DNA of 64,000 nt from an uncultured Candidatus Saccharibacteria bacterium (GTDB lineage Bacteria; Patescibacteriota; Minisyncoccia; Phycocordibacterales; UBA9973): contig CAYLQJ010000001.1 in assembly GCA_964385945.1 (NCBI GenBank), positions 8,034 through 72,033 of the forward strand. Direction: 5' to 3'. The notes below the pieces were generated by a model, which searched no databases, was not told the origin of the DNA, and saw nothing but the letters and a program-made list of their open reading frames with translations. A program made the position numbers and the translations under genes. Positions 32,919 to 54,400 of the stretch are shown in pieces. Position 1 is the first letter of the stretch; each line of letters opens with the position of its first letter.

Positions 32919-34310
32919 TTACTCCCCCATCAAAGTTCTACTCCTAGAACCAAAGAATCCAGTACCAGGAAGCTTATTTGCTTTCTGAAATCTAATCAGA
33001 GCAGAACGAGTAGCTGGACCGAATTTAGTAGTTTCTTTACCTTTTGAGCCTGGACCTGATTTTGCTATTGTATAACCGTTATTATTTAAATATTGTTGTA
33101 GTAATTTAACTTCAGAATGAATGTTCCCTAGTTTTAGATCTTTAGTGAATGTTAGTTTTGTAGGAGTTTCAAATTTAGTACAAGGTGTGCCTGTAGTAGG
33201 ATGATATGATTGACCTACTTTACATAGAGTTTCAGCTTGAATAGTTTTAGTACGTAGACTATCTGAGAGTTGTTGTAAGAAAGCTACGGATACTGCACCA
33301 CCTGCTGTACTTGATACTGAGACTGTAGGTGTAGGAGTACCAAAGAGACTGAATACAGAGAAGTTAGTTGTGGTACAAGTTACAGTGTTTAGAGTTGTGT
33401 TTACAATACAACCAGTCAATAGTGTCCATGTAGCTCCATCCCATCGATAGATAACTAGTGTTGATTCGTTTATACCAACGACATCACTGTCTTGGTATGT
33501 CATAGTGATTGTAATCGGTTGCAAGAAAGTAGTAACACTAGTATCTACACCAGTTAAGGCTTTAAGGTCGAATGCGTAGTCACCTGCTTTAGTGACTCCA
33601 CTTGGTGTACCTGAAGTTAGGAATACAGCTGTTTGGTCTAGAGATTTGATTTGGTAAGTTGCATCAGCTCCTGTTGCTCCTGTTGGTATTGTTAAGAGTA
33701 TTCCAGTAAGACCTGAAGTAAGGGTGGAGGTACCTCCAGTTGCAGTGACTATACTTGAAGCTGTCTCGTCTTCTACCGTAGCAGATCCAGTACAGCCGGT
33801 GGTGGTGAATGTATTGTCTATGCCTACTCCTAAATTTAAAGCTGCATCTTGAGACATAACTCTATAATGATAAGTAGTACAAGCCACAAGACTTGGTAAT
33901 GTTACAGTATGATTTGTAACTCTTGGAGAAGTATCTATTTCTGTGGTAGTTGTTCCATAACTATTTGTTAAGCCATAATTTACCATACTTGAAGAAAGTT
34001 CATTAGTGGTGAAGGTGATGGTGCTGGTGGTGGATGTGGGAGTAGAAAGAATACTTGAAAAAGTTGGGGCTACAGAATCAGGAATGGTAGCAGAGCCTGA
34101 TACAGGATTACCAGTACCACTACTGTTTACTGCACTTACTCTAAAGTTATAGACAGTCTCACTAGAAAGTCCTGTTACAGTAGCTGTGGTTCCAGCTGAA
34201 ACACCGTCTGTAAAAGTTGTCCAAGTACTTGATGCACTTGTTTTATATTCAACTAAATAATCAGTAATAGATGCACCACCATTAGATACAGGTGCTGTCC
34301 AAGAAACGCA
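32919..34310 (-). pseudogene. secreted FN3-repeat / C-terminal peptidoglycan-binding (PG_binding_1) surface protein, 5'-truncated
   Basis: The frame stays open upstream of the annotated Met. It encodes FN3 signatures (TAPVSNGGASITDYLVEYKT...VTGLSSETVYNFRVSAVNSSGTG) and a C-terminal LQQYLNNNGY...GPATRSALIRFQKANKL PG-binding domain. The N-terminus is lost at the junction with the recombinase remnant at ~34300. Confidence 0.5.
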
Positions 34311-34798
34311 TACTTGAATTGTATGCGAATGGAAATATTGAGAGAGCAGATTACTCTAAGAAAAATCAAGAATATGATGCGGAGATAGAGAAGCTTGGAA
34401 ATGAGAAGATTGAACTGGTAAAGCAAATTCCCCTACTGCACAAACCTTCGGTAATCGAATTAAGCATCGCCCAGTACTGCGATGAGGTTAGATCGAGAGC
34501 ACATCAGTGTAAAGATTTTGAAACATACAGACAATTTTTCCTAGACTTCGTAGACCACATTGTGTACTACAAAAATCTAGTTGAACTGCATGGATATGTG
34601 AAAATACAATCAACTAATGAAGATGATCCTGAAACCAGAATCGAATACAAGATCATAACTGAAATCGAATGGGCTGAGAGATTTTCTAACTACAGAAAAA
34701 AGATGAATGGCACCCGCATTAGCTTAATGGACTTCAATAGTATGGTTGGACAGAGCAAGAGGATAATGAAGGATAAAAAGTTATTTTCTAATGAGTAG
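34292..34798 (+). pseudogene. 3' fragment (last ~165 aa) of a large serine recombinase
   Basis: RILELYANGNIERADYSKKNQEYDAEIEKLGNEKIELVKQ...CDEVRSRAHQCKDFETYRQFFLDFVDHIVYY parallels the C-termini of the intact recombinases at 44162-47424. No catalytic domain; in-frame stop at 34283. Confidence 0.7.
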
Positions 34799-35300
34799 AT
34801 ATGTCATTAAAATAAATTTGTTGATCTTTTGGAACATCTGATATGGTTTTATATGCCTTAGTTTCACCAGAAACTGTATCAACAACTAAGTATGTTGGAA
34901 TGTCAGAAACTACCTCATATGAGCTCTCCATCAGTTGTCCATTCTGAAATAATTCCTGATAGTAGGTGTTTTTAATTCCGTCTGACGAACTATTTTTTAT
35001 ATTTTTTTTGTTAATAACGAAGATTTTATTATCAGAATATATATACTGATTTCGGTTATAAACCCTAGCAATTTCATAGTTGTGAATATGATCTTTTATT
35101 GACAGATAGTCCATATCCCAACCATCATTGATCGCGATTACTCCCTGACAATCTACAAAATTTCCCCAATAAGGATAATAACCTTGGCATTTTTCTGCAA
35201 TCTCTTTTTTTGGCACTACAAAGATAAAGTAATACAACAAGGGGATGCTTATTACTAATACAACAACTAAACTAATTATTATTTTTGTCTTTTTAATCAT
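34788..35300 (-). CDS. putative immunity protein of orphan RHS toxin module
   Basis: 170 aa with N-terminal TM helix, 1 nt downstream of the orphan RHS C-terminal domain, which is the canonical immunity position. Confidence 0.4.
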   Translation of the reverse strand: MIKKTKIIISLVVVLVISIPLLYYFIFVVPKKEIAEKCQGYYPYWGNFVDCQGVIAINDGWDMDYLSIKDHIHNYEIARVYNRNQYIYSDNKIFVINKKNIKNSSSDGIKNTYYQELFQNGQLMESSYEVVSDIPTYLVVDTVSGETKAYKTISDVPKDQQIYFNDISTH

Positions 35301-35301
35301 T

Positions 35302-36123
35302 TTATTTCTTTACTTTATCACTAATTTTAATATTTACTCCATAATTACTCAATATTCCGTTTCCTTGATCTTTATATGCCTGAGTTGCTGGTAATCTTGT
35401 AACAGTCCCTTTATATGTCTGTGAATTTGTAGGATTAAAATCATATCTATCTGTTACCGTACTGTTTACTACCCATGCCCCATCTTGCTGTGTTACCTGT
35501 GATTCAATATTTGCTCCGTGAAGTGAATAATACAAATCACTTCTACCCTCAAATTCAAAATCTCCACTATTTGTCATTTGTCCATTTTGGGCACGCTGAA
35601 TAGTTTTGTCTATATAAGATTTATATTGACTAGTTTCCATTATCTTTTCAATTGGATTGCCGTATTGTTTTTGATTGTTTGAATCTATTGTTAAATTATT
35701 TGGTTCGAGAGAAGCAGAGTGTCTCAATAAAGATGCCGAGAATGGTTTATTAAATAGATTACCTGCTAAAGAAAATACATTCCAGCCAATAACGTTTCTA
35801 ATACTTTCTATTGGATTATTTATCAGCGCATCAAAAGAAAGATTGCCGTCTGGATCAGAATACCTAAGTGGATTATTCCTTCCATATGCGTAACTATTTA
35901 ATTGTTGTGGATCTGTTAATAACTCTTCTAAGCTGATTCCGACTTTTTGTCTAATTTTATAGTTATCACCCATTGCTACAAATATGGGATCCTGACTTAT
36001 GAACTGCCCACGGGACCCCTCGTAGTAACGAGCATTCAGGTAGCTTAATCCTGTATCGACATCATATTCTTGTCCAATATAAATGCGATGACCGACACCC
36101 TCAACGCTTTTTCCAGATCTCAC
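35302..36123 (-). CDS. orphan RHS C-terminal module (end of RHS core + variable toxin domain)
   Basis: YIGQEYDVDTGLSYLNARYYEGSRGQFISQDPIF...NSYAYGRNNPLRYSDPDGN is near-identical in pattern to the core end of the 2661-aa RHS protein, followed by a different 178-aa C-terminal domain. Confidence 0.7.
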   Translation of the reverse strand: MRSGKSVEGVGHRIYIGQEYDVDTGLSYLNARYYEGSRGQFISQDPIFVAMGDNYKIRQKVGISLEELLTDPQQLNSYAYGRNNPLRYSDPDGNLSFDALINNPIESIRNVIGWNVFSLAGNLFNKPFSASLLRHSASLEPNNLTIDSNNQKQYGNPIEKIMETSQYKSYIDKTIQRAQNGQMTNSGDFEFEGRSDLYYSLHGANIESQVTQQDGAWVVNSTVTDRYDFNPTNSQTYKGTVTRLPATQAYKDQGNGILSNYGVNIKISDKVKK

Positions 36124-36256
36124 TATATATTAAAAGTCTAGTTTCCTAGTTTGCCAGGTTTGCTCCAAACAATCTATTAGCACTATTTCAGACTTTTTAT
36201 CTCAAAGATCGACATCTCTTAGACCTAACTTATTATAGCAATTTTATAATAAAAAA

Positions 36257-36306
36257 GTGACAAAAGTGACACATCTAGCACTTTAAAGTTACAGTCACGT
36301 GTCACT
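36257..36306. promoter_or_regulatory. cluster of GTGAC(A) direct and inverted repeats upstream of orphan RHS-CT gene
   Basis: GTGACAAAAGTGACAC ... GTCACGTGTCAC, plus TCTAGA/CTAGA repeats nearby; operator-like. Confidence 0.3.
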
Positions 36307-36335
36307 TAAATAGTGAGTCTAGATACTTCAATGTA

Positions 36336-37253
36336 TTACTCAAAACCCACCTTCGGATCTTTGATTATTTTAATAAACTCAAGTCTCTCTTTAAGAGTTT
36401 TTGAGTCTATTTGTGCTTGGTATTCTTCAACTTCACCAACTATTGACGAAGAAAATCCTGTCCTTTTTCTAAGTAAAAAGTGTAGATAATCACCGTCTTG
36501 AGCTGGATCAAGTGGCAGTGATTCTATTGCTTTCATCATTTTAACCCGATCAAGTTCAGGGTTATTTAATAAGAAGATAAGGACTTCCATCATTGTAATT
36601 TCTTCACGCTCAAAAGTAATTTCTTCATCACCCCATACAACTTTTGCAGCCTTAGAAGAACTGTCTGAGAGTTCATAAGTATACAAGTTCTTTGCGGTGG
36701 CTGCTTTATCTATCACGGAATAGAGATCTTTAGCAATTTTTTTTACTGTTTTACCCATAAACTTTTTAACCTGTAAAGAATTTTCGGTACCGATTATGTC
36801 ATTTCTCACATCTATTCCTAAGTGTTTATGAAGAAATGTAAGAAATAACTTTTTATCCTTAGATAAATTATCTATCTGGGGTAAATTAAAACGCCCGTAG
36901 CGATGATCTTCGTAAAATCTAGAAAGAAGCGTGAGTAATCCTGTATGAACAGAACCTAAATCTAGAACAACACTTTTCTTTAGTCTGCTATAGAGAGTAA
37001 TATGATCATGGGTAATTAGAGTTTTTTCAAATTCATCGACATTAGTGTCATCATTAAACTCTACTAGAACAATAGCGACCTTAAACATCCTCTCTAACCC
37101 TATTGAAAGATTATAAAGAACTGGAAATATTTCAGTTTCTAGATTCAGAGTTTCCATCTCGTGAAGATTTCTTAATCCATCATAGATAAAGTTACAAGCA
37201 ATCTCTTGTTCTTCTCCCATCTTAAAGTTTTGCCAAAATTCTCTTGGATTCAT
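36336..37253 (-). CDS. HEPN-motif protein tightly linked to Gabija (possible accessory defence gene)
   Basis: 305 aa; exact Rx4HxY motif RFYEDHRY at ~aa 110; 13-nt gap to gajB stop, same strand. Confidence 0.4.
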   Translation of the reverse strand: MNPREFWQNFKMGEEQEIACNFIYDGLRNLHEMETLNLETEIFPVLYNLSIGLERMFKVAIVLVEFNDDTNVDEFEKTLITHDHITLYSRLKKSVVLDLGSVHTGLLTLLSRFYEDHRYGRFNLPQIDNLSKDKKLFLTFLHKHLGIDVRNDIIGTENSLQVKKFMGKTVKKIAKDLYSVIDKAATAKNLYTYELSDSSSKAAKVVWGDEEITFEREEITMMEVLIFLLNNPELDRVKMMKAIESLPLDPAQDGDYLHFLLRKRTGFSSSIVGEVEEYQAQIDSKTLKERLEFIKIIKDPKVGFE

Positions 37254-37266
37254 ATTCTATAAAAAA

Positions 37267-38295
37267 TTAATTTACTACAAACGCAACACTATGTCTTGCG
37301 CGAGTAATTGCAACATACAACTTACTAATATCTCCGGCTTTAGTATGATCTTTTGTATTCACAAACTGAACCATATTCTTTGTCGGGAAAACCAGAACCC
37401 TATCGTATGTTCTGCCTTTTGACAGCCCTATATTTAGCGCCGTGTGCACTCCAGTTTTTGTTCTTTTATCATACCTAAGCAGAAATGGTTGGTGCTGTTT
37501 AATATATTCATCTAATTCACTTCTTTTAACCAAAAAAATGCCGTCGTGACCAGTTGTCACAGTGTTTTTTGAAGTAGTCTTTGGTAACGCAGGGTAAAGT
37601 AAATCTGCAAGATCACAGATAATCTGATTACACCTGTGGCAGTCAGTCTTTTCTTCGATAATGATATTTCCTTTTTGCTCTTGTTCCTGTAACCAATCGT
37701 AGATTTTTGAGCCTTTATATTTTGAGTTCTTAGATGAATTATTGGTTGCAAAAGTAGATTGTCTAGGGTCACCAACAGCAACTACCTCAATTGCCGAATT
37801 AAAAAGCTCTTCAAAAAAGTTAAGATCGTAACCTGCAAAGTCCTGCAATTCATCAATAAAAATATGGCTGTATATTTTTTCTAACCTTTTAATCACTAAA
37901 CCTCCGCTTTTTAAATTACACTCATATACAAATTCAGATAATTTCGTGCTGTAGATGTAGTTATTTTTTGTAAAATAATCATCTTTCCTGTGAAATCTAC
38001 TGAGAGTGCTTTGAAATAATATTGATTCAACACGAGGAGATGATGACATACAATTTTGATACGGTCTGACACCATCTCTGAGTAAAAAAGTAAACCAAGG
38101 CACTACATATATGTTTTGTGGAATAAATCCATTTTGCTCAATAATGGATTGTTTAATTTGATCAATATTTTCGTTCGTGTATGTTGTAATCAGAACGTTA
38201 GAATCTTTTACTTTTAAAGCTTCACTAACAATAAGAGTAGTTTTTCCAGATCCTGCGCACGCAACCACAGCTTTATTTGATGGCATCTTCGACAT
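37267..38295 (-). CDS. gajB: Gabija GajB-like UvrD/PcrA-type helicase (short form)
   Basis: Walker A VVACAGSGKTTLIV, motif II FIDELQDFAGYD, motif III VAVGDPRQSTF, motif VI LYVAITRARHSVAFVV. The start overlaps the gajA end. Confidence 0.7.
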   Translation of the reverse strand: MSKMPSNKAVVACAGSGKTTLIVSEALKVKDSNVLITTYTNENIDQIKQSIIEQNGFIPQNIYVVPWFTFLLRDGVRPYQNCMSSSPRVESILFQSTLSRFHRKDDYFTKNNYIYSTKLSEFVYECNLKSGGLVIKRLEKIYSHIFIDELQDFAGYDLNFFEELFNSAIEVVAVGDPRQSTFATNNSSKNSKYKGSKIYDWLQEQEQKGNIIIEEKTDCHRCNQIICDLADLLYPALPKTTSKNTVTTGHDGIFLVKRSELDEYIKQHQPFLLRYDKRTKTGVHTALNIGLSKGRTYDRVLVFPTKNMVQFVNTKDHTKAGDISKLYVAITRARHSVAFVVN

Positions 38296-39901
38296 AATCA
38301 GGAAATGTAATAGTGTGTGATGTTTCGAATATCCGAAGAGCACATTCAGTTTTATTACTTTCCATATAATTTAATAAATCGATATCATTTGCGTGTTTCG
38401 TAGAAAAAATATTATTTAAAATAGCCAAGCTGTTTGCTTTGAGCATCTGAGGTTCTAGTGTCTTAGCTGTATCGTCCTCAGAGCGACATATTTTTATGTT
38501 AGTACTCAGTTTGTATGGAGCATATTTTTTATCTACCTTGTTCGCAAAATCACCATCATTATCTGTCACAACACATACATCTTTATTTAGTTTCTCTGCA
38601 ATTTGCAAAAACCTTTCAAAAGACAGACCTCTAACATTAATAACATCAACACCTGCCTCTATCGGCAAAACTCCATGTTTTTGCTTATAGGCTTTTTGAA
38701 CTACAAGCTCGTCTGATGGACCCTCAACAAGAATGGTCTTTTTTGCCAAGACTAGACGCAAAGTGTCGTAACCTGATAGCTTCATGAAATAGTTTTGAGT
38801 ATCTTTAGATAAAGAGGCTAGAGATGTGGATTTATTGCCACTCAGCAATATCAAGTTTTCCAAACCTAATTTATTAAGGACATATGCACTATGCGTCGTA
38901 ATGATGATTTGTTTGCCTGCACACTTCTCGTGGATTTTTGTAATTAAAATATTCATAGAAGAAAAAGAAAGGTGGTTTTCTGGTTCTTCAATGAGAATTA
39001 TATTTGATGCCCCAGCTTTTCGCTCAAGAGCAAGCATTATTTTAAGTGCGTTTTGTTCTCCCTTTCCTACCATTTGGAATGGTAGCTGATCTAGGTGAGG
39101 TATAAGGTTTGTCTCCCAGTTTGTTTTTTGAGACATATCTATGGATATAGATAAATCCTTTTGGGTAATGGCGGCTTTCTTACTCGTCAGCTTTCCGTTA
39201 ATTGTTCCAATGGAGGGTTCTTTGGAAAAGATTTCTTTCAACTTACGAAAAGCAACACTTAGCCCTACTCGCTCCTTTGGATCTAGGTCTGTTTTGATAA
39301 TATCCTGAAGATAATAGTCAGTACCATTTTGAAGCCTAATATTTGTTGCGTCTATGTATGACAACCGTAGGGGTAAACTTCGGAGCGTTATTGCATTATT
39401 TGCAAAAGAGTACCAATGTATTTTGTAATACTCAGAAGGTATTAGATCTAAATCACTAGCCGAAGTTTTGATTAAATTCTCGTACTCCTCTTTATAATCT
39501 TCGTCAAAAACTATTTCTATTTTAACACCAATGGAATCCTCATTTTTTGAGTTCATTTTACCCCTTAAATATTCTAGGTCGGGACTGTCACCTAAATAGA
39601 GTTCTATAATTATTTCAGGCAATGATGCAGTTTTTCCACCCTTAATAGCAGTGATGTAGTCGTCTACACACTTTTTATTAAAAAGATAAGGAGATAATTC
39701 ATTCTCGATAGCTCTACCGTTCAGCTTCTTAGTAGATGCTAAATTGATAGCTTCAAGGATTGTTGATTTACCAACCTCATTATCTCCCACAAGAATATTC
39801 AAATTATCATTCAACTCTAGGTCGAAGTTATCAAAGATTTTGTAGTTTTTAATATAAATTTTTTTAATCATAGAAACTAAGCAAGATAGAGCTACCTGCA
39901 C
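38273..39901 (-). CDS. gajA: Gabija GajA-like OLD-family ATP-dependent endonuclease (ABC ATPase + TOPRIM)
   Basis: Walker A GDNEVGKSTILEAI, ABC-like HLSFSS and Walker B IILIEEPENHL, C-terminal TOPRIM ILVEGPSDE...VCVVTDNDGD. Confidence 0.75.
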   Translation of the reverse strand: MQVALSCLVSMIKKIYIKNYKIFDNFDLELNDNLNILVGDNEVGKSTILEAINLASTKKLNGRAIENELSPYLFNKKCVDDYITAIKGGKTASLPEIIIELYLGDSPDLEYLRGKMNSKNEDSIGVKIEIVFDEDYKEEYENLIKTSASDLDLIPSEYYKIHWYSFANNAITLRSLPLRLSYIDATNIRLQNGTDYYLQDIIKTDLDPKERVGLSVAFRKLKEIFSKEPSIGTINGKLTSKKAAITQKDLSISIDMSQKTNWETNLIPHLDQLPFQMVGKGEQNALKIMLALERKAGASNIILIEEPENHLSFSSMNILITKIHEKCAGKQIIITTHSAYVLNKLGLENLILLSGNKSTSLASLSKDTQNYFMKLSGYDTLRLVLAKKTILVEGPSDELVVQKAYKQKHGVLPIEAGVDVINVRGLSFERFLQIAEKLNKDVCVVTDNDGDFANKVDKKYAPYKLSTNIKICRSEDDTAKTLEPQMLKANSLAILNNIFSTKHANDIDLLNYMESNKTECALRIFETSHTITFPDYVEDAIK

Positions 39902-40257
39902 TATTATTTTAGCATTTTTTGCTTGATTTTTCTATCTTTCATTGTCTTTTGTTTTGTTGTTTATTTACCTCTGGAGCATGGGATCCCTGCCAAGGATTCT
40001 TGCACACAATTAACTTCTACTAATCTATTCTTTTATTTACTAAAAATATTTCGATTGGTAATAATATCCATTTATATAAGGATATTTTCAATAATATGCT
40101 ACTGAACACTCGCAACTAAAGAGTGTAATTTGATTAGTCGACATCCATTTAAATTCTATCTACCTAGTATTCTGATTATGTAACACATGGTTGTCATTTT
40201 TTCTAGAAAAGTGACTTTCAAGAAGTTGCATTATTAGTAATCTTTAATAAATATTTT

Positions 40258-41538
40258 ATGAAAAAAGAAGAATTAAGATGGGCTGTAGACATTCGCAAGC
40301 TCACAATATTAAAAAATTGGAAAGAAAATCCTAGAACGATAACTAAGGTGGCTTTAGAAAAGCTAAAAGAAAGAATCGTACAGCGTGGTTTCCATAGCGT
40401 CATTGTTATTGATACAGATAACACGATACTCTCTGGAAATCAGCGAGGGTTGGCTCTAAGACAACTTGGAATTAAGGAAGTAAATGTATTAGTTCCAAGC
40501 CGTAAATTAACTACTGAAGAAAGAAGAAAAATAGCTCTTGAGAGTAATTTAAACGATGGAGAATGGAATATGGAAGCTTTGAAGTCGTTTAATATAGATT
40601 TGCTAACTGATGTCGGATTTGACCAAATGAAGCTAGTTGAGTTTTGGGACAAAGATACCGAAATAAAAGAAGAATCATTTGATCTAAAGAAAGAAATAAA
40701 GCTTGCTCAAAAAACAAACATAAAACGAGGTAATATGTACCAACTCGGTAGACATCGTTTAATTTGCGAGGACGCTTTGAACCCCAATACAGTTCTAAAA
40801 TTAATGGGTAAAGTAAAGGCAGACCTTATAAATCAGGACCCCCCATTCAACATAAATTTATCATATGACAAGGGTGTTGGTGGGAAGAAAAGTAATAAGA
40901 ACTATGGTGGTCAAACCCAAGATAATATGAGCGATGAGGGCTATGCTGACTTCATTAGAAAGATGATGAAGAATGCACTTTCTGTTTCAAAAAAAGATTG
41001 TCACTATGCCTACTGGAGCGATGAACGGTTCGTCTGGATTTTTCAGACCTTATACAAAGAACTCGGTATTGCTTCAAAGAGACTACTTATATGGGCAAAA
41101 AACAACGCTTCACCAACGCCACAGGTGGCTTTCAATAAAGCTACCGAGTATGTGGTCTATGGAACAATTGGATCTCCTTATCTTTCACCTAATGTTCAAA
41201 ATGCTAATGAAATTATAAATCACGATACAACTACTGGAAACAACTTACTTGAAGAACTAAGTAATATAATTCTCCAAAAAAGACTACCAAGTAACCAGTA
41301 CTCACACCCCACGCAGAAGGATCCGCATGTTCACTATAAGATACTTAAGCGTTGTACAAAGATTGGTGACGCTGTGCTTGATTTAACGGCTGGGTCTGGG
41401 AGCATAATGTCTGCTTGTGAACAATTAGGTCGAACTGCCTATATGTGTGATTACGAACCTGTATTTTGTCAGGTAATTTTGAATAGGTATAAAAAAATGA
41501 CTGGGCTTAATCCAATACAAATCTATGAAGAAAAATAA
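40258..41538 (+). CDS. ParB-like nuclease domain / DNA methyltransferase fusion (N6-A or N4-C, beta class)
   Basis: N-terminal ParB domain ILSGNQRGLALRQLG; motif IV DPPF (INQDPPFNIN) precedes motif I DLTAGSGS. This is the arrangement usual upstream of phage terminase genes. Confidence 0.8.
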   Translation: MKKEELRWAVDIRKLTILKNWKENPRTITKVALEKLKERIVQRGFHSVIVIDTDNTILSGNQRGLALRQLGIKEVNVLVPSRKLTTEERRKIALESNLNDGEWNMEALKSFNIDLLTDVGFDQMKLVEFWDKDTEIKEESFDLKKEIKLAQKTNIKRGNMYQLGRHRLICEDALNPNTVLKLMGKVKADLINQDPPFNINLSYDKGVGGKKSNKNYGGQTQDNMSDEGYADFIRKMMKNALSVSKKDCHYAYWSDERFVWIFQTLYKELGIASKRLLIWAKNNASPTPQVAFNKATEYVVYGTIGSPYLSPNVQNANEIINHDTTTGNNLLEELSNIILQKRLPSNQYSHPTQKDPHVHYKILKRCTKIGDAVLDLTAGSGSIMSACEQLGRTAYMCDYEPVFCQVILNRYKKMTGLNPIQIYEEK

Positions 41539-41920
41539 ACTGCAAGATAAGTTTTTTGAAGAACTAAGAAATGTTCCTATTGTTCAAGTAGGATGTGAGA
41601 AAACAGGAATTTCTAGAAATAGTGTATATCGTTGGAAAAAAGAAGATAAAACTTTCGCAAAGAAAATGGATCAAGCTCTTGCTGATGGAGTTACCTTTGT
41701 TAGCGATATGAGTGAGAGTCAACTATTGACTTTGATTAAAGAGAAGGATTATAGAGCTATTAGCTTTTGGCTAAAACATAGAAATGATAACTACAAAAAT
41801 AAGGTTGAATTATCTGGAACAATACATACAAAGGAAGAACCTTTAACAAAAGACCAAAAGAAAGTAATTCGAGAAGCTTTAAGGTTATCATCACTAAAAA
41901 GCTATGCCAAAAAGAAATAA
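41525..41920 (+). CDS. terminase small subunit-like HTH protein
   Basis: HTH VQVGCEKTGISRNSVYRWKKEDKTFAKKM; overlaps the methyltransferase end and TerL start. Confidence 0.5.
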   Translation: MKKNKLQDKFFEELRNVPIVQVGCEKTGISRNSVYRWKKEDKTFAKKMDQALADGVTFVSDMSESQLLTLIKEKDYRAISFWLKHRNDNYKNKVELSGTIHTKEEPLTKDQKKVIREALRLSSLKSYAKKK

Positions 41921-43355
41921 TGAAAATGAAATACTATTTGAGCGTGTTTTAAAGGATCAGAGATTACGCCAGGAGCTTGTTAAAAAGAGTCTTGAATTCT
42001 TCTTCCCAATATACATGCATGAATATATAGGATATGAAACCGCACCATTTCATAAAGAGTTATTTCGTATTCTCCAAAATGAAAAACACAAACTTGCCGT
42101 TATTACTGCATTTCGAGGATCTGCTAAATCAACAATAGTAACAACGGCATATGTTCTGTGGTCTATTCTTGGTATACAGCAGAAGAAGTTTATTATTATC
42201 TGTTCACAAACAGAAGTAAAAGCTAGACAGCACTTAATGAACATAAAAAATCAACTTCTTCATAATGAGCTTTTAAAAAAAGACTTAGGACCATTTGAAG
42301 AAGAGAAAAATAACTTAGGTAATGCTACAGCAATCATTATTAAGCGAATGAATGTCAAAATAATGATTTGCTCAATTGAACAAAGTATTCGTGGAATGCG
42401 TCATGATCAACACCGTCCTGATCTTATCATCCTGGATGACATTGAGGATTTAGATTCTGTTAAAACCAAAGAAGGTCGTAATAAGAGTTTTGATTGGCTT
42501 ACAGGTGATATTATTCCTGCAGGTACTAGAAAAACTCGTATTATTGCTATTGGAAACTTGCTTCATGAAGACTGCGTATTAAAACGCTTAGAGAGAAAAA
42601 TAGAAAATGGTGAGATGAACAGAATGAATGGTATTTATCGTGAGTACCCAATTGTTGATACTAAGGGCAACCCACTTTGGATTGGTAAATATCCAACTCA
42701 TGAATCTATTGAAGAAGAACGAGAGAAAACTATGAATGATATCGCTTGGCACAGAGAGTATTTGCTTAAAATAATTTCAAGTGATGAGCAGATTGTAAAG
42801 AAAGAGTGGATTAAATTTTACAATACACTTCCTGCTGATGGATTTAGGGGTATCTGTATCGGAGTAGATTTGGCTATTGGAGAAAAAGAAACGAATGACT
42901 GTACCTCTATGGTTACTGGGTATGTTTATGGTGTCGGAAAGAAGATGAGAATATATATCCGTCCAAAACCATTCAATTCAAGAGTCTCATTTCCTGAACA
43001 AGCTGAATATTTGGCTAGTCTTATAGCGAGAGAAAAGGTCACGCACAACAGAGTAAAAGTATATGTCGAAGATGTTGGATACCAAAGGGCGTTAGTGCAG
43101 TATTTTGACAGCAACAAGTACGACATAGAAGCCGTACCAGTTGGAAGAATGAGCAAATCTTTAAGATTGCAACTAACAACACCACTTCTAAAAGAAAGTA
43201 GAGTTCTATTTCAAGAAGAAGGATGTGAAGAGCTTGTCGAGCAATTGCTTGGATTCGGGAAAGAGAAACACGATGATCTAGTAGATGCATTTTCCTTGCT
43301 CGTGATGAAAGTTATTGAGAATAACCCTAATGGATCAGGGATTCTTGTGGGGTAA
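41904..43355 (+). CDS. phage terminase large subunit
   Basis: Deviant Walker A VITAFRGSAKST, Walker B LIILDDIED, RNaseH-like nuclease acidic residues (GVDLAIGEKETNDCTS, HDDLVDAFSLLV). Confidence 0.75.
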   Translation: MPKRNNENEILFERVLKDQRLRQELVKKSLEFFFPIYMHEYIGYETAPFHKELFRILQNEKHKLAVITAFRGSAKSTIVTTAYVLWSILGIQQKKFIIICSQTEVKARQHLMNIKNQLLHNELLKKDLGPFEEEKNNLGNATAIIIKRMNVKIMICSIEQSIRGMRHDQHRPDLIILDDIEDLDSVKTKEGRNKSFDWLTGDIIPAGTRKTRIIAIGNLLHEDCVLKRLERKIENGEMNRMNGIYREYPIVDTKGNPLWIGKYPTHESIEEEREKTMNDIAWHREYLLKIISSDEQIVKKEWIKFYNTLPADGFRGICIGVDLAIGEKETNDCTSMVTGYVYGVGKKMRIYIRPKPFNSRVSFPEQAEYLASLIAREKVTHNRVKVYVEDVGYQRALVQYFDSNKYDIEAVPVGRMSKSLRLQLTTPLLKESRVLFQEEGCEELVEQLLGFGKEKHDDLVDAFSLLVMKVIENNPNGSGILVG

Positions 43356-44161: not shown

Positions 44162-45754
44162 ATGGAAAAAGCAGTATTGTATGCAAGAGTAAGTTCAGAT
44201 ATACAACAAAAAGAGCGGTCAATTGATAGTCAAATCGCGGAACTTAAGAAACAAATTACCAGTACTGGTAACAAGCTTGTAATGGAGTATATTGATGACG
44301 GTTATAGTGGTGCCTTACTCGACCGACCTGCTATGAATCAACTTCGTGAGGATCTAAAAACGGATAAATTTCAAGTTATTTACATACTGAATACTGACCG
44401 TATCGCACGCGACGTTACTTATCAAAATATAATCGTTGGGGAAATTTTAAGATACAAGAAACAACTCATCATTAATGGAAAAGATTATATTCATAATCCA
44501 GAGAACAAATTTACACTTACAGTGTTAGGAGCCGTATCTGAACTTGAAAGAGCCAAACTAATTGAGCGTACGACTCGTGGTAGACAACATAGACTCAAGC
44601 AAGGCCATCTAATGAGTAACGGATGGCAAACATATGCATATCGATATATTAAAAAATCAGCTACTGCTTTTCCTTCTTACGAGATCATTAGAGAAGAAGC
44701 TGATGTGGTCAAGTATATCTTCGAGACGTATGCAAATGGAAAAATTGGTATACAGTCAATAGCTATTCAACTTGAAGCAATGGGAGTCCCTAAAATCAAA
44801 GGGAGAAATTGTCTTAATCAATCTCAACTGAAAGCCATCCTAAAGAACGAGATGTATACAGGAATCAGATATTTCAACACAATGAAAACTGTGAAGATTG
44901 GCGACCCAATGAAGAAGCAGGTCAAAAGAAAAGAATATACAAATAGAGCCGAGTGGATAGGAATTAAAGTGCCAACAATTATCTCGAAGGAATTATATGA
45001 CAAAGTGCAGATAAAACTTGCATATAATTATTCCAACTGGAGGAACTCAAAACGAGTCCAACTTCTCTCAAATCTGGTCTGTTGTGGGAAATGTGATTCA
45101 AAATGTTTTTCATATAAACGACCTAGAGAAAAATTTGCATACAAGTGCAACAATAGAAAAATTGGGGTTCATAACCCAGAAATTAATGTCAAACAGCTTG
45201 AATCTACTGTATGGGAAATGATTGAGGAGATTATACTTGATCCCAAAAAACTCTATTCTTCGATAGAAATATTAAAGAGAAGAAGTCGAACAAATCATGG
45301 ACGAATCGAAATTAAAATAAAGGATATTGAAAAACAGATATCTGATTTATCAAACCAGAAAAAAAGAATCATAGACTTGTATGCATCTGGAAGTCTCGAA
45401 AAGGATGAATCGGCAACCAGAATAAATAATTACGACAAGAGTATTAAAAAAATAAAATCCGAGAAAATCGAGCTATTAAAATACCTTCCCCTCTTTGAAA
45501 AGTCTGACCTCATTCAAGAAAACGTCAGAACTTACTGCGAAAAGGTGCGTGCAAGATTTAATAAGTGTGCTGATTTTGAAACACAAAGACAGTTTCTTAT
45601 GGATTACATAAGCAAAGTGACTTTCTACAGAAAAGGTAAAAAATATAGCAGGATAAGAATATATGGATCAGTACCGATCAGCTACATAAATAATGAAGAT
45701 GTCATTCCTGTCGGGTTTAAATTTGAGAAAGTCTTAACCGAATCAAAACTATGA
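44162..45754 (+). CDS. large serine recombinase (resolvase catalytic domain + recombinase domain + zinc ribbon)
   Basis: AVLYARVSSDIQQKERSIDSQ catalytic Ser, DRIARD, recombinase domain, CCGKCDSKC...YKCNNRK ribbon, coiled-coil tail. Confidence 0.9.
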   Translation: MEKAVLYARVSSDIQQKERSIDSQIAELKKQITSTGNKLVMEYIDDGYSGALLDRPAMNQLREDLKTDKFQVIYILNTDRIARDVTYQNIIVGEILRYKKQLIINGKDYIHNPENKFTLTVLGAVSELERAKLIERTTRGRQHRLKQGHLMSNGWQTYAYRYIKKSATAFPSYEIIREEADVVKYIFETYANGKIGIQSIAIQLEAMGVPKIKGRNCLNQSQLKAILKNEMYTGIRYFNTMKTVKIGDPMKKQVKRKEYTNRAEWIGIKVPTIISKELYDKVQIKLAYNYSNWRNSKRVQLLSNLVCCGKCDSKCFSYKRPREKFAYKCNNRKIGVHNPEINVKQLESTVWEMIEEIILDPKKLYSSIEILKRRSRTNHGRIEIKIKDIEKQISDLSNQKKRIIDLYASGSLEKDESATRINNYDKSIKKIKSEKIELLKYLPLFEKSDLIQENVRTYCEKVRARFNKCADFETQRQFLMDYISKVTFYRKGKKYSRIRIYGSVPISYINNEDVIPVGFKFEKVLTESKL

Positions 45755-47424
45755 AAAAAGCAGTTCTCTATGCTCGCGTAAGTACAGATATTCAACAAAA
45801 AGAAGGTACTATTGAAAGCCAGGTAGTTGCACTTAAACAGCAAATCGTAGATAACGGAGATGTATTAGTGAAAGAGTACATAGATGCAGGACATAGTGGT
45901 GCTAAGATAGACAGACCAGCACTTGATCAATTGCGAAAAGACCTGAAGACAGATCTCTTCGACTCTATCTATTTCTTAAACACTGACCGTATAGCTCGTG
46001 ATGTTACATATCAAAACATCATCATTACAGAGGTACTTAAATACAAGAAGCAGATAATTATTAATGGAAAAGACTATATTCATAACTCAGAAAATAAATT
46101 TGAGCTGACCGTTCTGGGAGCTGTCGCAGAACTTGAAAGAGCAAAGATGATTGAACGCAGTATGCGTGGAAAGCAACACAAACTACGGAATGGATTTCTG
46201 CTCAGTCACGGATACAACATATATGGATATAACTATATTCCGCGATTCGGTGACTCACCTGCTCGACTGGATATTAACGAAAAAGAAGCATGGGTAATTC
46301 GATATGTCTTTGAGACGTATGCATCAGGAGAAATGAGTTGGGCTGGAATCATACGAGATCTTGAAAAAATGGGAGCAACAACAAAGAAAGGCAATAAACA
46401 CTGGCCTCAACATCAAGTTCGGCAAATTCTAAAAAATTCAACATATTCAGGAGTCCGATATTTCAATAAATGCAGACACGTAAAGACAGAATCGAGTCCA
46501 TTGCGTAAAATAAAATATGGCAAGAAAGTATATCGTGATAAATCTGAATGGATCGCAGTGAAAGTTCCTGCAATTGTGTCTAAAGTCCTCTTTGACAAAG
46601 TGCAGAAGAAAATGGAAGAAAGCAGTAGTAAGTACAAAAGTCCTAAACAAGTGCAACTACTTTCTAACCTTGTTCGTTGTGGAGAATGCGGACGTTTTTG
46701 TATTGCCTACCGCCGTTATATGCGACACTACTACAAATATAAAGGCGTGACGAAGAAAGTGACAGGCAACGTATATTACAAAGCGGCTTATAAATGCAAT
46801 CGACGTTGGATGGATCGGGTTCATTTAAAAACTTTGGATATTAAGCGTTGCACTAATCCTGAGGTATCGGTTCGAGTACTTGATCCAGTAATCTGGAATA
46901 TGGTTGAAGAGAAAATATTGAATCCGAAAGAACTAAAGAAACATCTAGTTGATTGGGAATCAGACGTTAAATCAGTTCAAACTAAAATGGAGAAAAAGCT
47001 AAGAAAATTAGATCAAGAGGAACAATATCTAAAAAGTAATAGAGAAGAAACACTAGAACAATACGCGATAGGAAAATTAGATCATAAGATATATCTAGAG
47101 AAATGTCTTACTTACGACATTGAAACAAATCGCTTAAAACTAGACAGAGATCAAGTTACCAAAAAGATTCCAATCTTACACAAGAAAGAAGTTATAGAAG
47201 CAAATATAAGATTCTTTTGTGGTTCTGCCCAGATTCGATTTGATAAATGTAAGACTTTTGATAACAAGCGAAGATTTGTTTTAGATTTGGTTGAAGAAAT
47301 TCTTTATAACCATGGAAAAGTTATTTTGAAAGGCTCAGTACCATTACAACTAAAAACAACCGAAAATTCTGATTCTCAAGAACAAGAAAAAATCAGTTTT
47401 TCTATAGAGAAAAATATCAAATAG
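45751..47424 (+). CDS. large serine recombinase, paralogue of upstream gene (tandem pair, 4-nt overlap ATGA)
   Basis: AVLYARVSTDIQQKEGTIESQ, DRIARD, CGECGRFC...YKCNRR ribbon; ~50% similar to the upstream gene. Confidence 0.9.
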   Translation: MKKAVLYARVSTDIQQKEGTIESQVVALKQQIVDNGDVLVKEYIDAGHSGAKIDRPALDQLRKDLKTDLFDSIYFLNTDRIARDVTYQNIIITEVLKYKKQIIINGKDYIHNSENKFELTVLGAVAELERAKMIERSMRGKQHKLRNGFLLSHGYNIYGYNYIPRFGDSPARLDINEKEAWVIRYVFETYASGEMSWAGIIRDLEKMGATTKKGNKHWPQHQVRQILKNSTYSGVRYFNKCRHVKTESSPLRKIKYGKKVYRDKSEWIAVKVPAIVSKVLFDKVQKKMEESSSKYKSPKQVQLLSNLVRCGECGRFCIAYRRYMRHYYKYKGVTKKVTGNVYYKAAYKCNRRWMDRVHLKTLDIKRCTNPEVSVRVLDPVIWNMVEEKILNPKELKKHLVDWESDVKSVQTKMEKKLRKLDQEEQYLKSNREETLEQYAIGKLDHKIYLEKCLTYDIETNRLKLDRDQVTKKIPILHKKEVIEANIRFFCGSAQIRFDKCKTFDNKRRFVLDLVEEILYNHGKVILKGSVPLQLKTTENSDSQEQEKISFSIEKNIK

Positions 47425-48463: not shown

Positions 48464-51400
48464 TTAATTTCCTTTTATTTTATTAATAATTGTTCTAACT
48501 CCATTGGAAACCGCTTGAGTTGCCCTATTTATTGCACCACCAACTTGTCGCCCAGTTTCTCGAGAGCCATAATTACTTACAGCCGATAAATTTGCAGCTC
48601 CCATTGTACCATTTGCTTTAACATAATTACTTGGAATTGCTTGTCCGTAACCTGGATCAATGCCTGGAGCATTACCATTCCATGGCAAGTTTTCAACTCC
48701 TGCCCCACGAAGAAGTGTTGTCGCAAAATTATTTGAATTATATCCGTTATTTACAAATGGATCATATGCTGCATCTTCATTATACGCATTATATTGGTTA
48801 GTAATATTTTTAATAAATTCTGTATCAGAAACACCTGATGGCATTTGAACCTGAACAGTCGATTTCATTTTACCTTTCTGCTGATCTGGCATAGAATACC
48901 CGTTTTGAACCACAGAAACGTCACTAGGCGCATTTCTACCTTTAATTAGGTTGCCATTATCACCAGCATAACCTCCGAGCGTCCAAGCATCTCCAGATTT
49001 CATACCGAAATCTCCCGGATTATTGGGTGCTATCAAAAGAAAAACATGAGTTCCTGCACTATTATTTTCTATTTCTTTTGAAACCGCATATACACTTCTT
49101 CCCGTTGGGTCACTTAGTGTAATAGGATTATTCCTTGCATATGCATATGAGTTTTGATTTTGTGGGTCGAGCAACCAATCTAGTGAAGTAACCCAAAACT
49201 CAGGATCCTGGCTTATAAACTGACCTCTAGCCCCGTTGTAGTAACGGGCGTTAAGATAAGATAATTGTGTGTCTTCGTCATACTCCTGTCCTATATACTG
49301 CTTAGCATTTGTAAATGATCCTGAAGAAATTCTTTGGTCTCCATAAGGGAAGTAATCTAACAATTCAACTTGTGCCCCTGTGTCATCTGTTACTACATTT
49401 GTACCTCCAAGGTGATCAGTGTGAACATAATACGGGCTTACGACAGTGCTTATTGTTTCAATTGTTGAAACAAGAGCATCCCCAGCATAAATACTTTTTG
49501 TTTCTTTTCCTGACGGGTCCACATTGTATAGCTTGTTCGCATAATAAGTATTATCACTATCATTCTTTGCTCTAACTCTTTGTCCCTCATGGTCATACCA
49601 GTATTCCAGCACATCAACACCATTATCTGATTCTATCAATTGTTGTTTATAATTCCAAGTGTTTGCAAGAGTTTCATCATCTAAGAGGTTTCCATCTTTG
49701 TCGTAAGTGTAGGTAATCTCTCCTGATGGTGCATGCACCACAACGGTGCGTATTTTACCTGGAGCTGAGTTACCAATAGAATCTTCGACATTATAAATAA
49801 GCTGATATGTACCTGCGATTGCAGTATTAACTGTTCCAGTTACATCAACATCACCAGTAATAGTTCCGTCTTCAGTGTCAGCTGCTGAATATCCTGGCTC
49901 GGTCCATGTATCATTAACATCTAAATCAATTAGATCAGAACCAGTAAGTGTGATGACAGGATTGTCATTTGGAGGAGGTACAGAAGAAGCTACTACAGTA
50001 AATGTACCACTACTAGTAAATTTATGAATTGTATATGCTCCAGATGTACTTACTGTACCACCAGTAGATGTATTAGAAACACCATCACTACCATCAGTTT
50101 TATAAGTAACTATAACTATACCTGAACCACCATTTTGACTACCACTATAACCATTACCACCTCCACCACCACCTGTATTAGAGGTTCCAGACTCACCAGA
50201 ATAACTTCCATCACCTCCACCACAAGTGCCATCTCCTGGACTACCACCATTTCTAACTCCACCTCCACCACCTGCATAACATACACTTGTTCCACTTATA
50301 TCAGTAGTAAAACCTGGACCACCATTAGATGCAGGGGCACTCGATCCTCCTGTTTGCCCTGCTCCTGTTGCACCTCCTCCACCTCCAGAATTTAACCAAG
50401 AGCCTCCTCCAGCATAACCTTGTCCACTTGTTCCACTACCTCCTGAACCATCTGCTGAACCACCTCCACCAGAACCTCCAGAATTTCCATGTTTACTTCC
50501 TGCTGACAAAGAACCGCCTCTACCTCCCCCAACAGCTGTCAAACTACTGAAAACAGAATTTCCCCCATTAGACCAACTATTACCACCACTTCCAACAGTT
50601 ATTGAATAAGCCTGAGCTGTTACAGAATGAGAAGTATGATAAAGCACACCACCTGCTCCACCTCCACCACTATAGTACATAGATGCTTGTCCACCCGAAC
50701 CTCCTCCAGCAACTACTAATGCTTTTACAGATAGAGAAGGTGGAACATATGGGTCATGAACTACAATAGTACGTATTTTACCAGGTGCAGGGGCATCTGC
50801 TGAGTCTTCAACGTTATAAATCAATTGATACACTCCAGAGACAGCAGTATTGACCGATCCTGTTACTGTTACATCACTAGTGATTGTCCCATCTTCAAAG
50901 TCAGATGCAGAATATCCTGGTTCTGTCCATGTGTCATTCACATTTAAATCAATTAAACTACTTCCAGACAGAGTAATTGTTGGATTGTTGTTGGATACTA
51001 CATCATTAATAAATGTAATAGCATGTGGATTAGCATAATTTGATCCTGTTGAGCCAGCATATGTATATGACCCCAAAGGACTTGATGTTATATTTCCAAT
51101 AGCATCATAAAAATAAGATTGAATATAAGTAGATTGACCACCAGCAACACTTGTAGCAGTTGCTGAGGTCATACGATTTAAATCGTCGTAAACATACGCA
51201 ACTGTTTTTGAAGCATCAGTATTAGAATTATCTATAATTTGAGTAATGTTTCCATTTTCATCGTAGGTATAAGCAATATCTTGGAAAATAGTGGTGGATG
51301 GAATAGAATATGTGACTTCAAGTTTTGGATCGGAAGAAGTGCCTGAATATTCTCCAGCTCTAATAATAAGGTAATTGTTTTGACCAGAAGTTCCAGTAAA

Positions 51401-54400
51401 TGGACTGTCTATAACATCGTGACCTTCACGTAACCCCAATTTAGTAAAACCAGTTTTGTTTACCCACCCTTTACCAGTAGTATTTAAATTAAATGTAAGA
51501 TATGCGCTGGTGGAAACACTAGTAATATCTTTCCTTTCTCCAGTGTCGACACCTTCTGTAGGATTATTTATACTTCCAGCAAGATCAAAATCTGAATTTG
51601 CAAGTGCTGTATTACTTGGTTGCGACGTTTGAACCACTGTTACCCAATCATCTCCGTCGTTATCATTATTAAGTTTAGAATTAATATATGTTTTTAGTTT
51701 TGCATCAGAAATTACTGCATCATCAGGCAAAGAGGAAGTATCAAAAGGTAGAAAAGCTCTACGAATTCGATAACTTGTAGCACTTGCTTTTCCATTACCA
51801 GTATAAAATGTAGTACCGGTATAGCTTGAAACAACTCCCGACGTGGCGTCGTGTCCAGTATCCCAATTTGTATTGTCATTATATACATATCCATCACCCG
51901 CAGCAGGATAAAAAGTAACAGTTGTTGGTGTCCCGCCACTATAATATGAAGTATATTTTCGAGTTAATCTGTATATTTTAGTTTCATCATATGTATTTGT
52001 AGTGTTAGTTCCGTTAGAATTCATCTGATAAGTTATTTTTCCATGCGGTCCATAATCAAAATCAGAAACTACATCAGTATATGAGCCACCATTTTCTTTT
52101 CTCTCAACTTTCTCTAATTGCCCAGCAGTATTATAGGTGTATTTAATTTGAGCACTATCAGGATAAGTGATAACTAATTTGTTCCCAAGACGATCGTATG
52201 TGTGGGAGGTGGTGTACGCATTGCTGTTAATTGTCTTTACCTCACTTACAGTGTTGCCATTTGAATCATAGGTATAATCAGTATCCGCTCCAGCGAGCAT
52301 ATCCACCGCACAAACCTTCCCTATTCCGTTCATGCAAGAATCATATGTGTAAGTAATTTCGGTTCCGCTTCCGACTGTTTCATTTTCGGTAAGCACACGA
52401 TTTATATCATCATAAGTATAGTTCACTGTTTTTGCTTCAGGACTTACTGACTGAATCATATTACTTGCATCATCATATGTGTATGACCAAGAACCAAACG
52501 TAGCATCTCCCGAAGCATGCAAATCTTCAGCGGTTAATCTTCTTCCTAAACCATCATATGTAAAGTTACGGAAGTTGCTTAGAGCATCCGTTATCTTAGT
52601 AAGTTTTTTGTTTAGATTCCATTCGTAGTTCGTGATGTATGTGGACCCGCTATTTACTTCCTCTACTTTGATTAGGTTGTCGTGCGCATCTTTATAATAG
52701 TTCTTCACTTTGCTTCGTGGGTCAGTAGTAGTAGTCTTCCAGTCGTCATAGGTATAGTTTGTAGTACCTACTGCATCTACGACAGTAGAATATCGTTGCA
52801 TTGGATCATAGGTATATGTTTTGTATAGTGCTGTCGTACTAGTAGCTGTAGTTCTAGAAGTCCCGGAAGAATCATAAGGTAAGGATTCTTTTTGAAGTAA
52901 GCCAACATTGTTATACAGATAATCCCGAGCAACATAACTTGATTCACTTTCAGTTCTATCTTGAATCTTTCTATTAAGTCCATCAAGATATGTGTAGCTG
53001 TCCACACTATTTGAACCATCTAGGTTATCTGTCTTCTGTACTGCAACTGCACCAGAGGTATCTGTATATGTATATGCTGTTTTTGTAACTGCAGAATACG
53101 GAGAACCGAAATCAGGAACTTTTTCAGTAAGTACTCTGTCTAGTCCGTCATAGGTTCGTTGGTACACAAAACCATTCGGTTCAGTTACCTGTTTAATATT
53201 TCCTGAAGCATAATCATAGGTGTAATCGGTATCATTTGAAAGCGGATCGGTAACGGTTGCTGGATACAAATAATTTGCATCGTAGGTGTATGAAGTAACT
53301 TTTCCTCGCTCATCGGTGGAAGAAGTAGGAATACCATACGTAGTGTTGTAACCTTTCTGAGTATTTACATAGGTACTACTCACTTTCCATTTTTCAACTT
53401 TAGTTGGATTACCATCAGTTACAGTGCCTAAAGACTGAGCATCATAATATGTTTTGGTTTCTCGAACCTTGGCAGCACTTTGATCTACGACGGTGTCCTG
53501 ATATGGAAGACCTACAATCCAGTCAGTAGTGTTTGCGGTGTAAGTAATTGTCTCTACCGTCTTATCTGTCCCTGTGTCTGTGTAAGATCCGTCATCGCTT
53601 CCCGTGACTTCACCCCACATTGTTTTAGTAGTGATATTTCCATAGGTATCATCATATGTATATTCAGTAGTGGTATCTTTATGATCACTATCGCCGTCGT
53701 ACGACAGAACTGTTGAACGAACTAACTTCACAAAATCTCTTCCTGTTCCTTGATTATATTTATCCCACTTGTTTACGGTTTTTTGATAAATATTGTTGGA
53801 AGTATCTGCTATTTCCGTTCTGTAGATTTTTCCTGCTTTAGAAATATGATCGCTGTATTCTCCCTGTGAAGAATTTGTAGAGTTTCCTTGGTGGAAATAA
53901 TTAGTGGTTTTTGTAGTACCATCATCTTCTATGATTTTTCCGAAACCAGTGATTTTACGATCAAGATGAGTGTTAAAGTAATAGTCGCCTTCCTGGTAGC
54001 TGTACGTTTTGGTAATAGTTGGGTTACTGAAACCGCTTGTTGTCGCTATTTGATAGACCGTATCTAGAACAGCAGGCAGATGAGGATTTAAGGTTGCTCC
54101 ACCACTTGCATACTTAGGTGAACTTTTGTACGTGACTGTGGAAACTCCACCAAATCTGTTCATGATTGTAGAAAGTAAATCTGCTTTTATTCTTTGGTTT
54201 TTAGAAAGAGTTGCTGAGCTCTGAGCACTATCATAAAAATCAAGCATCCCATCACCATCAAAATCAGTTAGACGTGTTACGGGATTAGTAGTTAAGGGTA
54301 TTCCAGCCAAAGGAAATTGCGAATTTGTTGTAAATTGCCACCCTGGGCTCTTATTCAAATATGCACCATTTGTGCTTGTTGACCCAGACAAAATATCTAT

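Follow-up and report, generated by a model that had tools for sequence, protein, structure and literature searches.

The window considered here, a 64,000-nucleotide (nt) stretch of contig CAYLQJ010000001.1 (assembly GCA_964385945.1) from an uncultured Candidatus Saccharibacteria bacterium, contains a pair of Gabija-type defence genes, gajA and gajB, followed by a third gene, here called ORF3, whose relation to the pair is the subject of this report. A preliminary description of the DNA had placed three consecutive genes on the minus strand and quoted a set of signature motifs; the genes lie at the coordinates it gave, and all of the quoted strings were located in the expected places. The first gene, gajA (38273..39871, minus strand), encodes a class-2 OLD-family protein of 532 amino acids (aa) in which an ABC-type ATPase is joined to a TOPRIM nuclease; its longest open reading frame (38273-39901, minus strand) opens with GTG and would yield 542 aa, and the ATG at 39871, chosen by PADLOC and the gene callers, is the likely start. 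The second, gajB (37267..38295, minus strand), encodes a compact superfamily 1 (SF1) UvrD-like helicase; within its longest open reading frame (37267-38343, minus strand), the probable start is the ATG at 38295 or that at 38286, giving a product of 342 or 339 aa and an overlap of the gajB 5' end with the gajA stop of 23 or 14 nt, respectively. ORF3 (36336..37253, minus strand) encodes a predicted all-alpha protein of 305 aa from an uncharacterised family.

ORF3 begins 13 nt past the gajB stop, and the string RFYEDHRY, to which the preliminary description had drawn attention, is indeed present at residues 112-119 of its product. The spacer (37254..37266, minus strand; TTTTTTATAGAAT), the sequence of which was read directly, is hairpin-free, and no terminator-like sites were found between gajB and ORF3; elsewhere, the two genes are separated by 13 nt (locus L180, 2453-2465) or 12 nt (L181, 4989-5000). 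About 30 nt past the ORF3 stop, RNA folding of 36230-36340 places a terminator-like hairpin (36245..36307, minus strand) in which an 11-bp stem is followed by a U-rich tract; as its whole-stretch z-score of -0.74 is not significant, this hairpin is suggestive only as the probable end of a three-gene transcript. Because it follows ORF3 and nothing terminator-like lies between gajB and ORF3, the three genes are most likely carried on one transcript here. The probable promoter region of this operon is the divergent intergenic region (39872..40257) between gajA and an N6/N4 DNA methyltransferase gene, wherein a sigma-70-like sequence on the minus strand (39934-39906) matches at 9/12 with an extended TG; the number of promoter-like matches in the region equals shuffle expectation, which makes this weak evidence.

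The assignment of the first two genes to Gabija, an OLD-family GajA paired with a UvrD-like GajB, was borne out by full-length matches to PADLOC profiles, by Pfam domains, and by intact motifs. GajA matches the PADLOC GajA profile PDLC00102 at E=3.2e-212 (residues 11-542 on profile positions 2-530 of 532) and contains AAA_15 (E=7.6e-21), AAA_21 (E=1.9e-16), and OLD-like_TOPRIM (PF20469, E=2.2e-15, covering positions 2-67 of 67). Its Walker A (GDNEVGKST) and Walker B (IILIEEPENHL) strings start at residues 29 and 291, and the TOPRIM catalytic residues, on which the earlier assignment likewise depended, are in place, with the glutamate string LVEGPSDE at residue 381 and the DxD string VTDNDGD at residue 435. 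GajB matches the PADLOC GajB profile PDLC00148 at E=1.4e-118 (residues 22-358 on positions 2-354 of 369) and the Pfam UvrD-helicase family PF00580 at E=1.7e-13, and helicase motifs I, II, III, and VI were located as AGSGKTT, DELQD, GDPRQ, and VAITRARHSV. In phmmer searches of PDB sequences, GajA returned only AriA, retron Ec83 PtuA, and Thermus OLD, all weakly (E about 1e-7 to 1e-6), and GajB had no match at 1e-5; the pair is thus very distant from its solved relatives, and its membership in Gabija therefore rests on the PADLOC profiles together with domain architecture.

Gabija, which is said to have been described by Doron and colleagues in 2018 with the GajA/GajB pair of Bacillus cereus VD045 as its prototype, is also called a class 2 OLD nuclease plus UvrD/PcrA-like helicase. 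The window resembles this known system in its overlapping same-strand gene pair, in the GajA ATPase and OLD-type TOPRIM, and in GajB SF1 motifs I, II, III, and VI, and differs from it in the compactness of GajB (about 340 aa, as in a populous subtype) and in the extra gene downstream. The view that GajB is unusually short was not upheld: its length is standard for the PADLOC subtype PDLC00148/00140, whose profiles have 365-369 positions, and an aberrantly short or truncated GajB was rejected because the protein is full length against its own profile. At E<1e-20, compact GajB has homologues in at least 1,255 clusters, the best 120 of which are all about 320-380 aa long; a GajA partner is present in 76 of 80 metagenomic loci encoding compact GajB. 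These sequence comparisons support a canonical two-gene Gabija operon of the common compact-GajB subtype, which to our knowledge is experimentally uncharacterised. Gabija responds to a phage-associated loss of nucleotides or to DNA ends, and the TOPRIM domain of GajA nicks DNA under the control of ATP; by analogy with what is known of the system, the pair in the window would act through ATP- and nucleotide-gated TOPRIM nicking, with GajB sensing DNA ends. In itself, the pair offers nothing new beyond one more member of a large subtype.

The preliminary description had further proposed a three-gene variant of Gabija, an architecture that surveys made from both sides of the junction do not sustain. 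The Gabija-side survey comprised the 80 metagenomic loci with compact GajB, 60 of which extend for at least 1 kb past the end of gajB; an ORF3 homologue was found downstream in none of these 60, and in the 80 loci overall it occurs once, in the closest relative of the window's pair (L095, GajB 87% identical). The ORF3-side survey comprised 80 loci from species-representative genomes of Patescibacteria (candidate phyla radiation, CPR), Pseudomonadota, Bacteroidota, Bacillota, Planctomycetota, and others, and most of the homologues stand beside other systems or alone. A Gabija pair lies directly upstream of ORF3 in only three of these loci (L005, L006, and L007) and directly downstream in L026 and L029, Hachiman HamAB lies upstream in L001-3 and L017, and an adjoining Gabija or Hachiman system is found in only about 10 of the 80. 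Other immediate neighbours include PDC-S06 (L018 and L058), HsdR (L029), HsdS (L062), an NsnB/AbiLi-like ATPase (L067), a CBASS cyclase, DolB, GmrSD, SLFN, transposases, and housekeeping genes, and all-versus-all clustering across the 80 loci found no neighbour family that they share.

ORF3 homologues also occur by themselves, on chromosomes as well as on small plasmids: one is solo in L085, another is apparently monocistronic on pBT9727-type Bacillus thuringiensis plasmids (flanking gaps of 384 and 264 nt), and a third belongs to the set of nine genes annotated on 6.5-kb Lactiplantibacillus plasmids and keeps the family's signature motifs. The lack of a shared neighbour, together with such varied, solo, and monocistronic settings, is the signature of an autonomous gene residing in defence islands. 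Divergent ORF3 genes (about 24% identity, signature motifs preserved) are cargo of 6.5-19 kb plasmids of Lactiplantibacillus, Levilactobacillus, and Pediococcus (including L182, NZ_CP068769.1, 12-1082), and these small plasmids also carry rep, an integrase, and a Phd/YafQ toxin-antitoxin pair. Classical abortive-infection (Abi) genes of lactic acid bacteria are plasmid-borne, and the small-plasmid ORF3 genes recall them. A phage origin of ORF3 was considered and rejected, as the phage database gave no match and IMG/VR, among the viral collections searched, only five loci.

Searches of ORF3 against Pfam, PADLOC, PHROGs, and NCBIfam returned nothing above noise, phmmer found no match among PDB sequences, and no description of its family was found in the libraries or literature searched. 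The family comprises 117 clusters at 90% identity in a word-indexed search and 609 at 50% in an exhaustive profile search; its full-length members are mostly about 300-320 aa long, and a Pfam scan of ten longer variants (373-551 aa) for domain fusions gave nothing informative. An AlphaFold2 model derived from 50 diverse members (predicted local distance difference test score, pLDDT, 87.8; predicted template-modelling score, pTM, 0.85) is wholly alpha-helical, and its predicted fold includes the four-helix up-and-down bundle expected of HEPN, so that the N-terminal bundle can be called HEPN-like with moderate confidence. Foldseek comparison of the model with PDB and BFVD yielded no significant match, and alignment of the family profile by hhalign with a canonical 175-aa HEPN protein, a HEPN_AbiU2 protein, and a DUF4145 protein gave probabilities below 1%. 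The only match of the family profile to PDB was a marginal one to the TFIIE-beta winged helix (E=0.001, residues 189-260), a faint sign of a winged-helix-like region, one that would bind nucleic acid or protein, after the HEPN-like bundle.

The Rx4HxY string within RFYEDHRY, from which a HEPN nuclease had been proposed, arises in 1% of composition-preserving shuffles of ORF3 (the generic Rx4-6H in 65%). Of 176 distinct members, 14 (8%) have R112, 86 (49%) have H117, and seven (4%) have both, with Rx4-6H at no aligned position exceeding 13% of the members. The proposal that ORF3 is a HEPN protein thus stands as regards the predicted fold; the Rx4HxY site is coincidental and unconserved, and no HEPN sequence profile is matched. 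What is conserved lies elsewhere: E15, F43, Y47, G52, E54, R55, K58, H82, F113, Y114, R118, and Y119 are invariant, R121, T192, E194, K201, E223, and R290 exceed 95%, and the signature motifs ER..K, H, FYxxxRYxR, and YTYE survive even at 24% identity, in a protein from a Lactiplantibacillus plasmid. The catalytic motif that defines HEPN RNases is thus lacking as a conserved feature, and the invariant, non-canonical polar cluster (E54, R55, K58, H82, R118, Y119, and R121) suggests a different active or ligand-binding site.

Comparison with characterised HEPN proteins places ORF3 near, and apart from, two groups. Stand-alone HEPN-type Abi proteins (AbiD/F, AbiU2, DUF4145, and ApeA), which are linked to restriction-modification (R-M) and defence operons and correspond to the "second-line RNase" concept reportedly put forward by Anantharaman and co-workers in 2013, are like ORF3 small and all-alpha with a HEPN-like bundle, and like it are scattered over phyla, in or beside R-M or defence operons and on small plasmids. 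Unlike them, ORF3 has neither a conserved Rx4-6H nor a Pfam HEPN match, and it has about 120 additional aa at its C-terminus and its own invariant set (ER..K, H82, FYxxxRYxR, and YTYE). In HepT/MNT toxin-antitoxin systems, the HEPN toxin carries Rx4HxY, the tyrosine of which is AMPylated by MNT; we take SO_3166 (5yep) and 7ae2 to be examples of such toxins. The window's ORF3 happens to hold the same string, but it is more than twice as long as these toxins, and the arginine and histidine of the motif are unconserved in its family. No MNT nucleotidyltransferase lies beside it, its neighbours being GajB and an RHS-core fragment, in which no nucleotidyltransferase domain was found.

Within a small clade of Patescibacteria, the linkage of ORF3 to Gabija is real and recurrent. 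The nearest genome-assigned homologues of the window's ORF3 (82-83% identity) belong to metagenome-assembled genomes of Saccharibacteria and Minisyncoccia. ORF3 follows the subtype designated Gabija-short in the window and in L007, L090, L180, and L181, a list extended by three further contigs (P0002, P0003, and P0031), and it follows Gabija-long in L091 and, with a canonical HEPN protein in between, in L005, L006, and L084, so that some Gabija-long loci hold a canonical HEPN gene besides the ORF3 homologue. This intervening protein (L005:7477-8001, L006:3805-4329, and L084:5478-5996) is 172-175 aa long, bears the motif RNWLAH, overlaps the ORF3 start, and has no Pfam or PADLOC match. After Hachiman (L001-3, L092, and L094), a PD-Lambda-3_A-like PD-(D/E)xK protein usually lies between HamB and ORF3 (L001:7503-7994, L002:7566-7991, L003:6754-7179, and L094:4567-5004); these small proteins match PADLOC PD-Lambda-3_A at E 1e-13 to 7e-16, with spacers of 0-6 nt. 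PD-lambda-3 is a two-gene Abi system with a PD-(D/E)xK component, and the arrangement suggests that in those Hachiman loci ORF3 could replace the B component of a PD-lambda-3-like pair. The likeness is confined to L001-3 and L094, where the A-like small nuclease is directly upstream of the ORF3 homologue; the window, in contrast, has no A-like gene, and ORF3 has no PADLOC match, PD-Lambda-3_B included. The small proteins upstream of ORF3 fall, by jackhmmer, into unrelated groups, namely PD-(D/E)xK-like proteins, canonical HEPN proteins, and a membrane protein.

The genes around ORF3 in this clade vary as though exchanged. Two ORF3 orthologues that are 78% identical, the first 60 aa being identical throughout, follow non-orthologous Gabija pairs (GajB about 20% identical; GajA 29% over a local stretch of 160 aa), a module consisting of the methyltransferase gene and a gene for a 131-aa protein flanks differing cargo in the window, L084, and L181, and in L008, L010, L088, and L094 the gene directly next to ORF3 is a convergent serine recombinase. 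The simplest reading is a cargo hotspot within serine-recombinase mobile elements, at which defence cassettes swap while ORF3 stays. Directly downstream of ORF3, a 419-aa protein and a 254-aa DUF5677 protein recur regardless of the upstream Gabija subtype (L090:3625-5645; L005:8937-10193 and downstream; L009:8930-9691), and this pair may be another portable module.

In our judgement, the locus is probably a two-gene Gabija system joined by ORF3 as an autonomous, portable module of defence islands, and not as a Gabija subunit. ORF3 would be co-transcribed with gajAB here and yet function independently of GajAB, or in loose synergy only, perhaps as an Abi-type second-line effector or sensor. It might be a metal-independent RNase, or else a binder of nucleic acids or nucleotides, and the invariant Glu, Arg, Lys, His, and Tyr cluster would bind or cleave nucleic acid; as the canonical catalytic motif is absent, any such activity is speculative. 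Several observations weigh against this interpretation. The absence of that motif is itself one of them, and the defence role of the family, drawn as it is from gene contexts and residue conservation, is that of a candidate only. In addition, among the close relatives surveyed (54-100% identity, mostly from Patescibacteria metagenomes), ORF3 in most loci ends a helicase-nuclease operon, often preceded by at most 13 nt or by an overlap, a pattern that would also fit functional partnership.

Such partnership could take two forms. ORF3 may be a promiscuous accessory or "guard" of helicase-nuclease systems (several Gabija subtypes, Hachiman, and type I R-M), for example a latent effector that is set free once a phage inhibitor has put the primary complex out of action, for which PrrC with EcoprrI is the analogue offered. 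This model draws on the placing of ORF3 0-13 nt behind the last gene of Gabija-short, Gabija-long, and Hachiman operons, on the successions HsdS-ORF3 (L062), HsdR-ORF3-GajAB (L029), and HamAB-ORF3 (L017) in distant phyla, and on the recurrent acquisition of modules by Hachiman and others as recounted in the portion of PMC13069673 that cites Tuck et al. (2026). We nevertheless hold it to be rather unlikely, given that many members are solo or lie beside non-helicase or non-defence genes, that adjoining Gabija or Hachiman systems account for so small a share of the species-representative loci, and that the Patescibacteria pattern may mirror a shared cargo hotspot rather than function. Its most far-reaching version, wherein the family would constitute a new and widespread class of defence modules in which a HEPN-derived fold carries a re-invented active site (E54, R55, K58, H82, R118, and Y119), plugged into helicase-nuclease systems (three Gabija subtypes, Hachiman, and type I R-M) as a back-up or "guard" effector that fires once phage inhibitors neutralise the primary system, strikes us as similarly doubtful. 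The second form, a genuine three-component Gabija with ORF3 as a HEPN RNase effector or add-on that is dedicated to GajAB and acts through R112x4H117xY119, would accord with the 13-nt spacing, the common strand, the placement of a terminator-like hairpin only after ORF3, the HEPN-like predicted fold, and the retention of the arrangement in at least five independent contigs (GajB 47-92% and ORF3 55-80% identical). It is improbable all the same: no locus of the same subtype among the 60 has ORF3, the two residues invoked are unconserved, the family also occurs alone, and ORF3 orthologues (78% identical to each other and each about 80% to the window's) are paired with non-orthologous Gabija systems or with Hachiman.

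A further possibility is that ORF3 has no part in defence and is a housekeeping or regulatory gene of serine-recombinase mobile elements, flanking a hotspot that receives Gabija, Hachiman, and other systems. The convergent large serine recombinases that abut ORF3 in four loci, the convergent recombinase fragment (34292-34798) and two intact recombinases (44162-47424) of the window itself, the methyltransferase and 131-aa module around different cargo, and the weak winged-helix-like match could all be accommodated by this explanation. It too appears very unlikely, since members of the family turn up across many phyla unaccompanied by recombinases, within type I R-M operons, and on small plasmids, since the family is nearly absent from viral collections, and since its invariant polar residues resemble an active or ligand-binding site and not a simple DNA binder.

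Precedents exist for accessory genes at systems of this kind, HamMAB being an example of accessory acquisition by defence systems (PMC13069673), and type II Gabija contains a "GajC," a MazF-like protein that replaces GajA (PMC13069673). The identity of ORF3 with this published GajC was rejected, the latter being an unrelated MazF-like replacement of GajA. ORF3 resembles the accessories of HamMAB and type II Gabija in being a modular gene appended to varied core systems, including Gabija and Hachiman, and differs from GajC in that it is an addition rather than a replacement and is frequently solo as well. The Gabija pair, then, is of a known kind, and ORF3 is a lineage-specific, portable add-on to a known system. 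Under the preferred reading, that of an autonomous module, ORF3 becomes a concrete candidate for a new stand-alone Abi gene, just as under the accessory model it would be a candidate shared accessory of helicase-nuclease immunity; its interest lies in the combination of a sizeable family unannotated in every library searched, defence-island behaviour, a predicted HEPN-like fold, sharply defined non-canonical invariant residues, and, in Patescibacteria, a marked tendency to close interchangeable Gabija and Hachiman cassettes at their 3' end. The locus is likewise an example of how cassettes swap at a defence hotspot on mobile elements of Patescibacteria.

The gajAB-ORF3 operon is surrounded by a mobile stretch rich in defence genes, in a genome of Patescibacteria type. 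Upstream, the orphan N6/N4 DNA methyltransferase gene (40258-41538), divergent from gajA, is accompanied by the gene for the small helix-turn-helix protein of 131 aa, by a terminase-large-like gene (41904-43355; weak Terminase_6C match), by a bacterial PH-domain gene on the minus strand, and by two tandem, paralogous, and intact large serine recombinase genes (44162-45754 and 45751-47424); in L084 and L181, the methyltransferase and 131-aa module, to which the terminase-large-like gene may be added, flanks different Gabija subtypes. On the other side, beyond ORF3, lie an orphan fragment of 273 aa comprising an RHS-associated core and a C-terminal toxin (35302-36123, minus strand), a putative immunity gene (170 aa; 34788-35300, minus strand), and a fragment resembling only the C-terminal part of a phage integrase or large serine recombinase (168 aa; 34292-34798, plus strand; PHROG 95, E=2e-6), convergent with the ORF3 side. 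This fragment is probably the remnant of an old element boundary, and an intact recombinase occupies the equivalent place directly after ORF3 in L088 and L094. The proposal that ORF3 is itself an RHS immunity protein was rejected, as its family overwhelmingly occurs without RHS genes.

Lastly, a giant RHS/SpvB/FG-GAP/Ig-like protein of 2,661 aa is encoded at 48464-56449 (minus strand), and the Gabija/ORF3 element lies between it and the orphan RHS fragment, about 12 kb apart, as if inserted into an array of RHS toxin cassettes. The two arms of a perfect inverted repeat of 18 nt (AAGGATAAAAAGTTATTT / AAATAACTTTTTATCCTT) lie at 34769-34786, near the junction of the recombinase fragment and the immunity gene, and at 36843-36860, inside ORF3; the repeat is probably a chance occurrence in AT-rich DNA. 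Contigs identical to that of the window come from environmental metagenomes.

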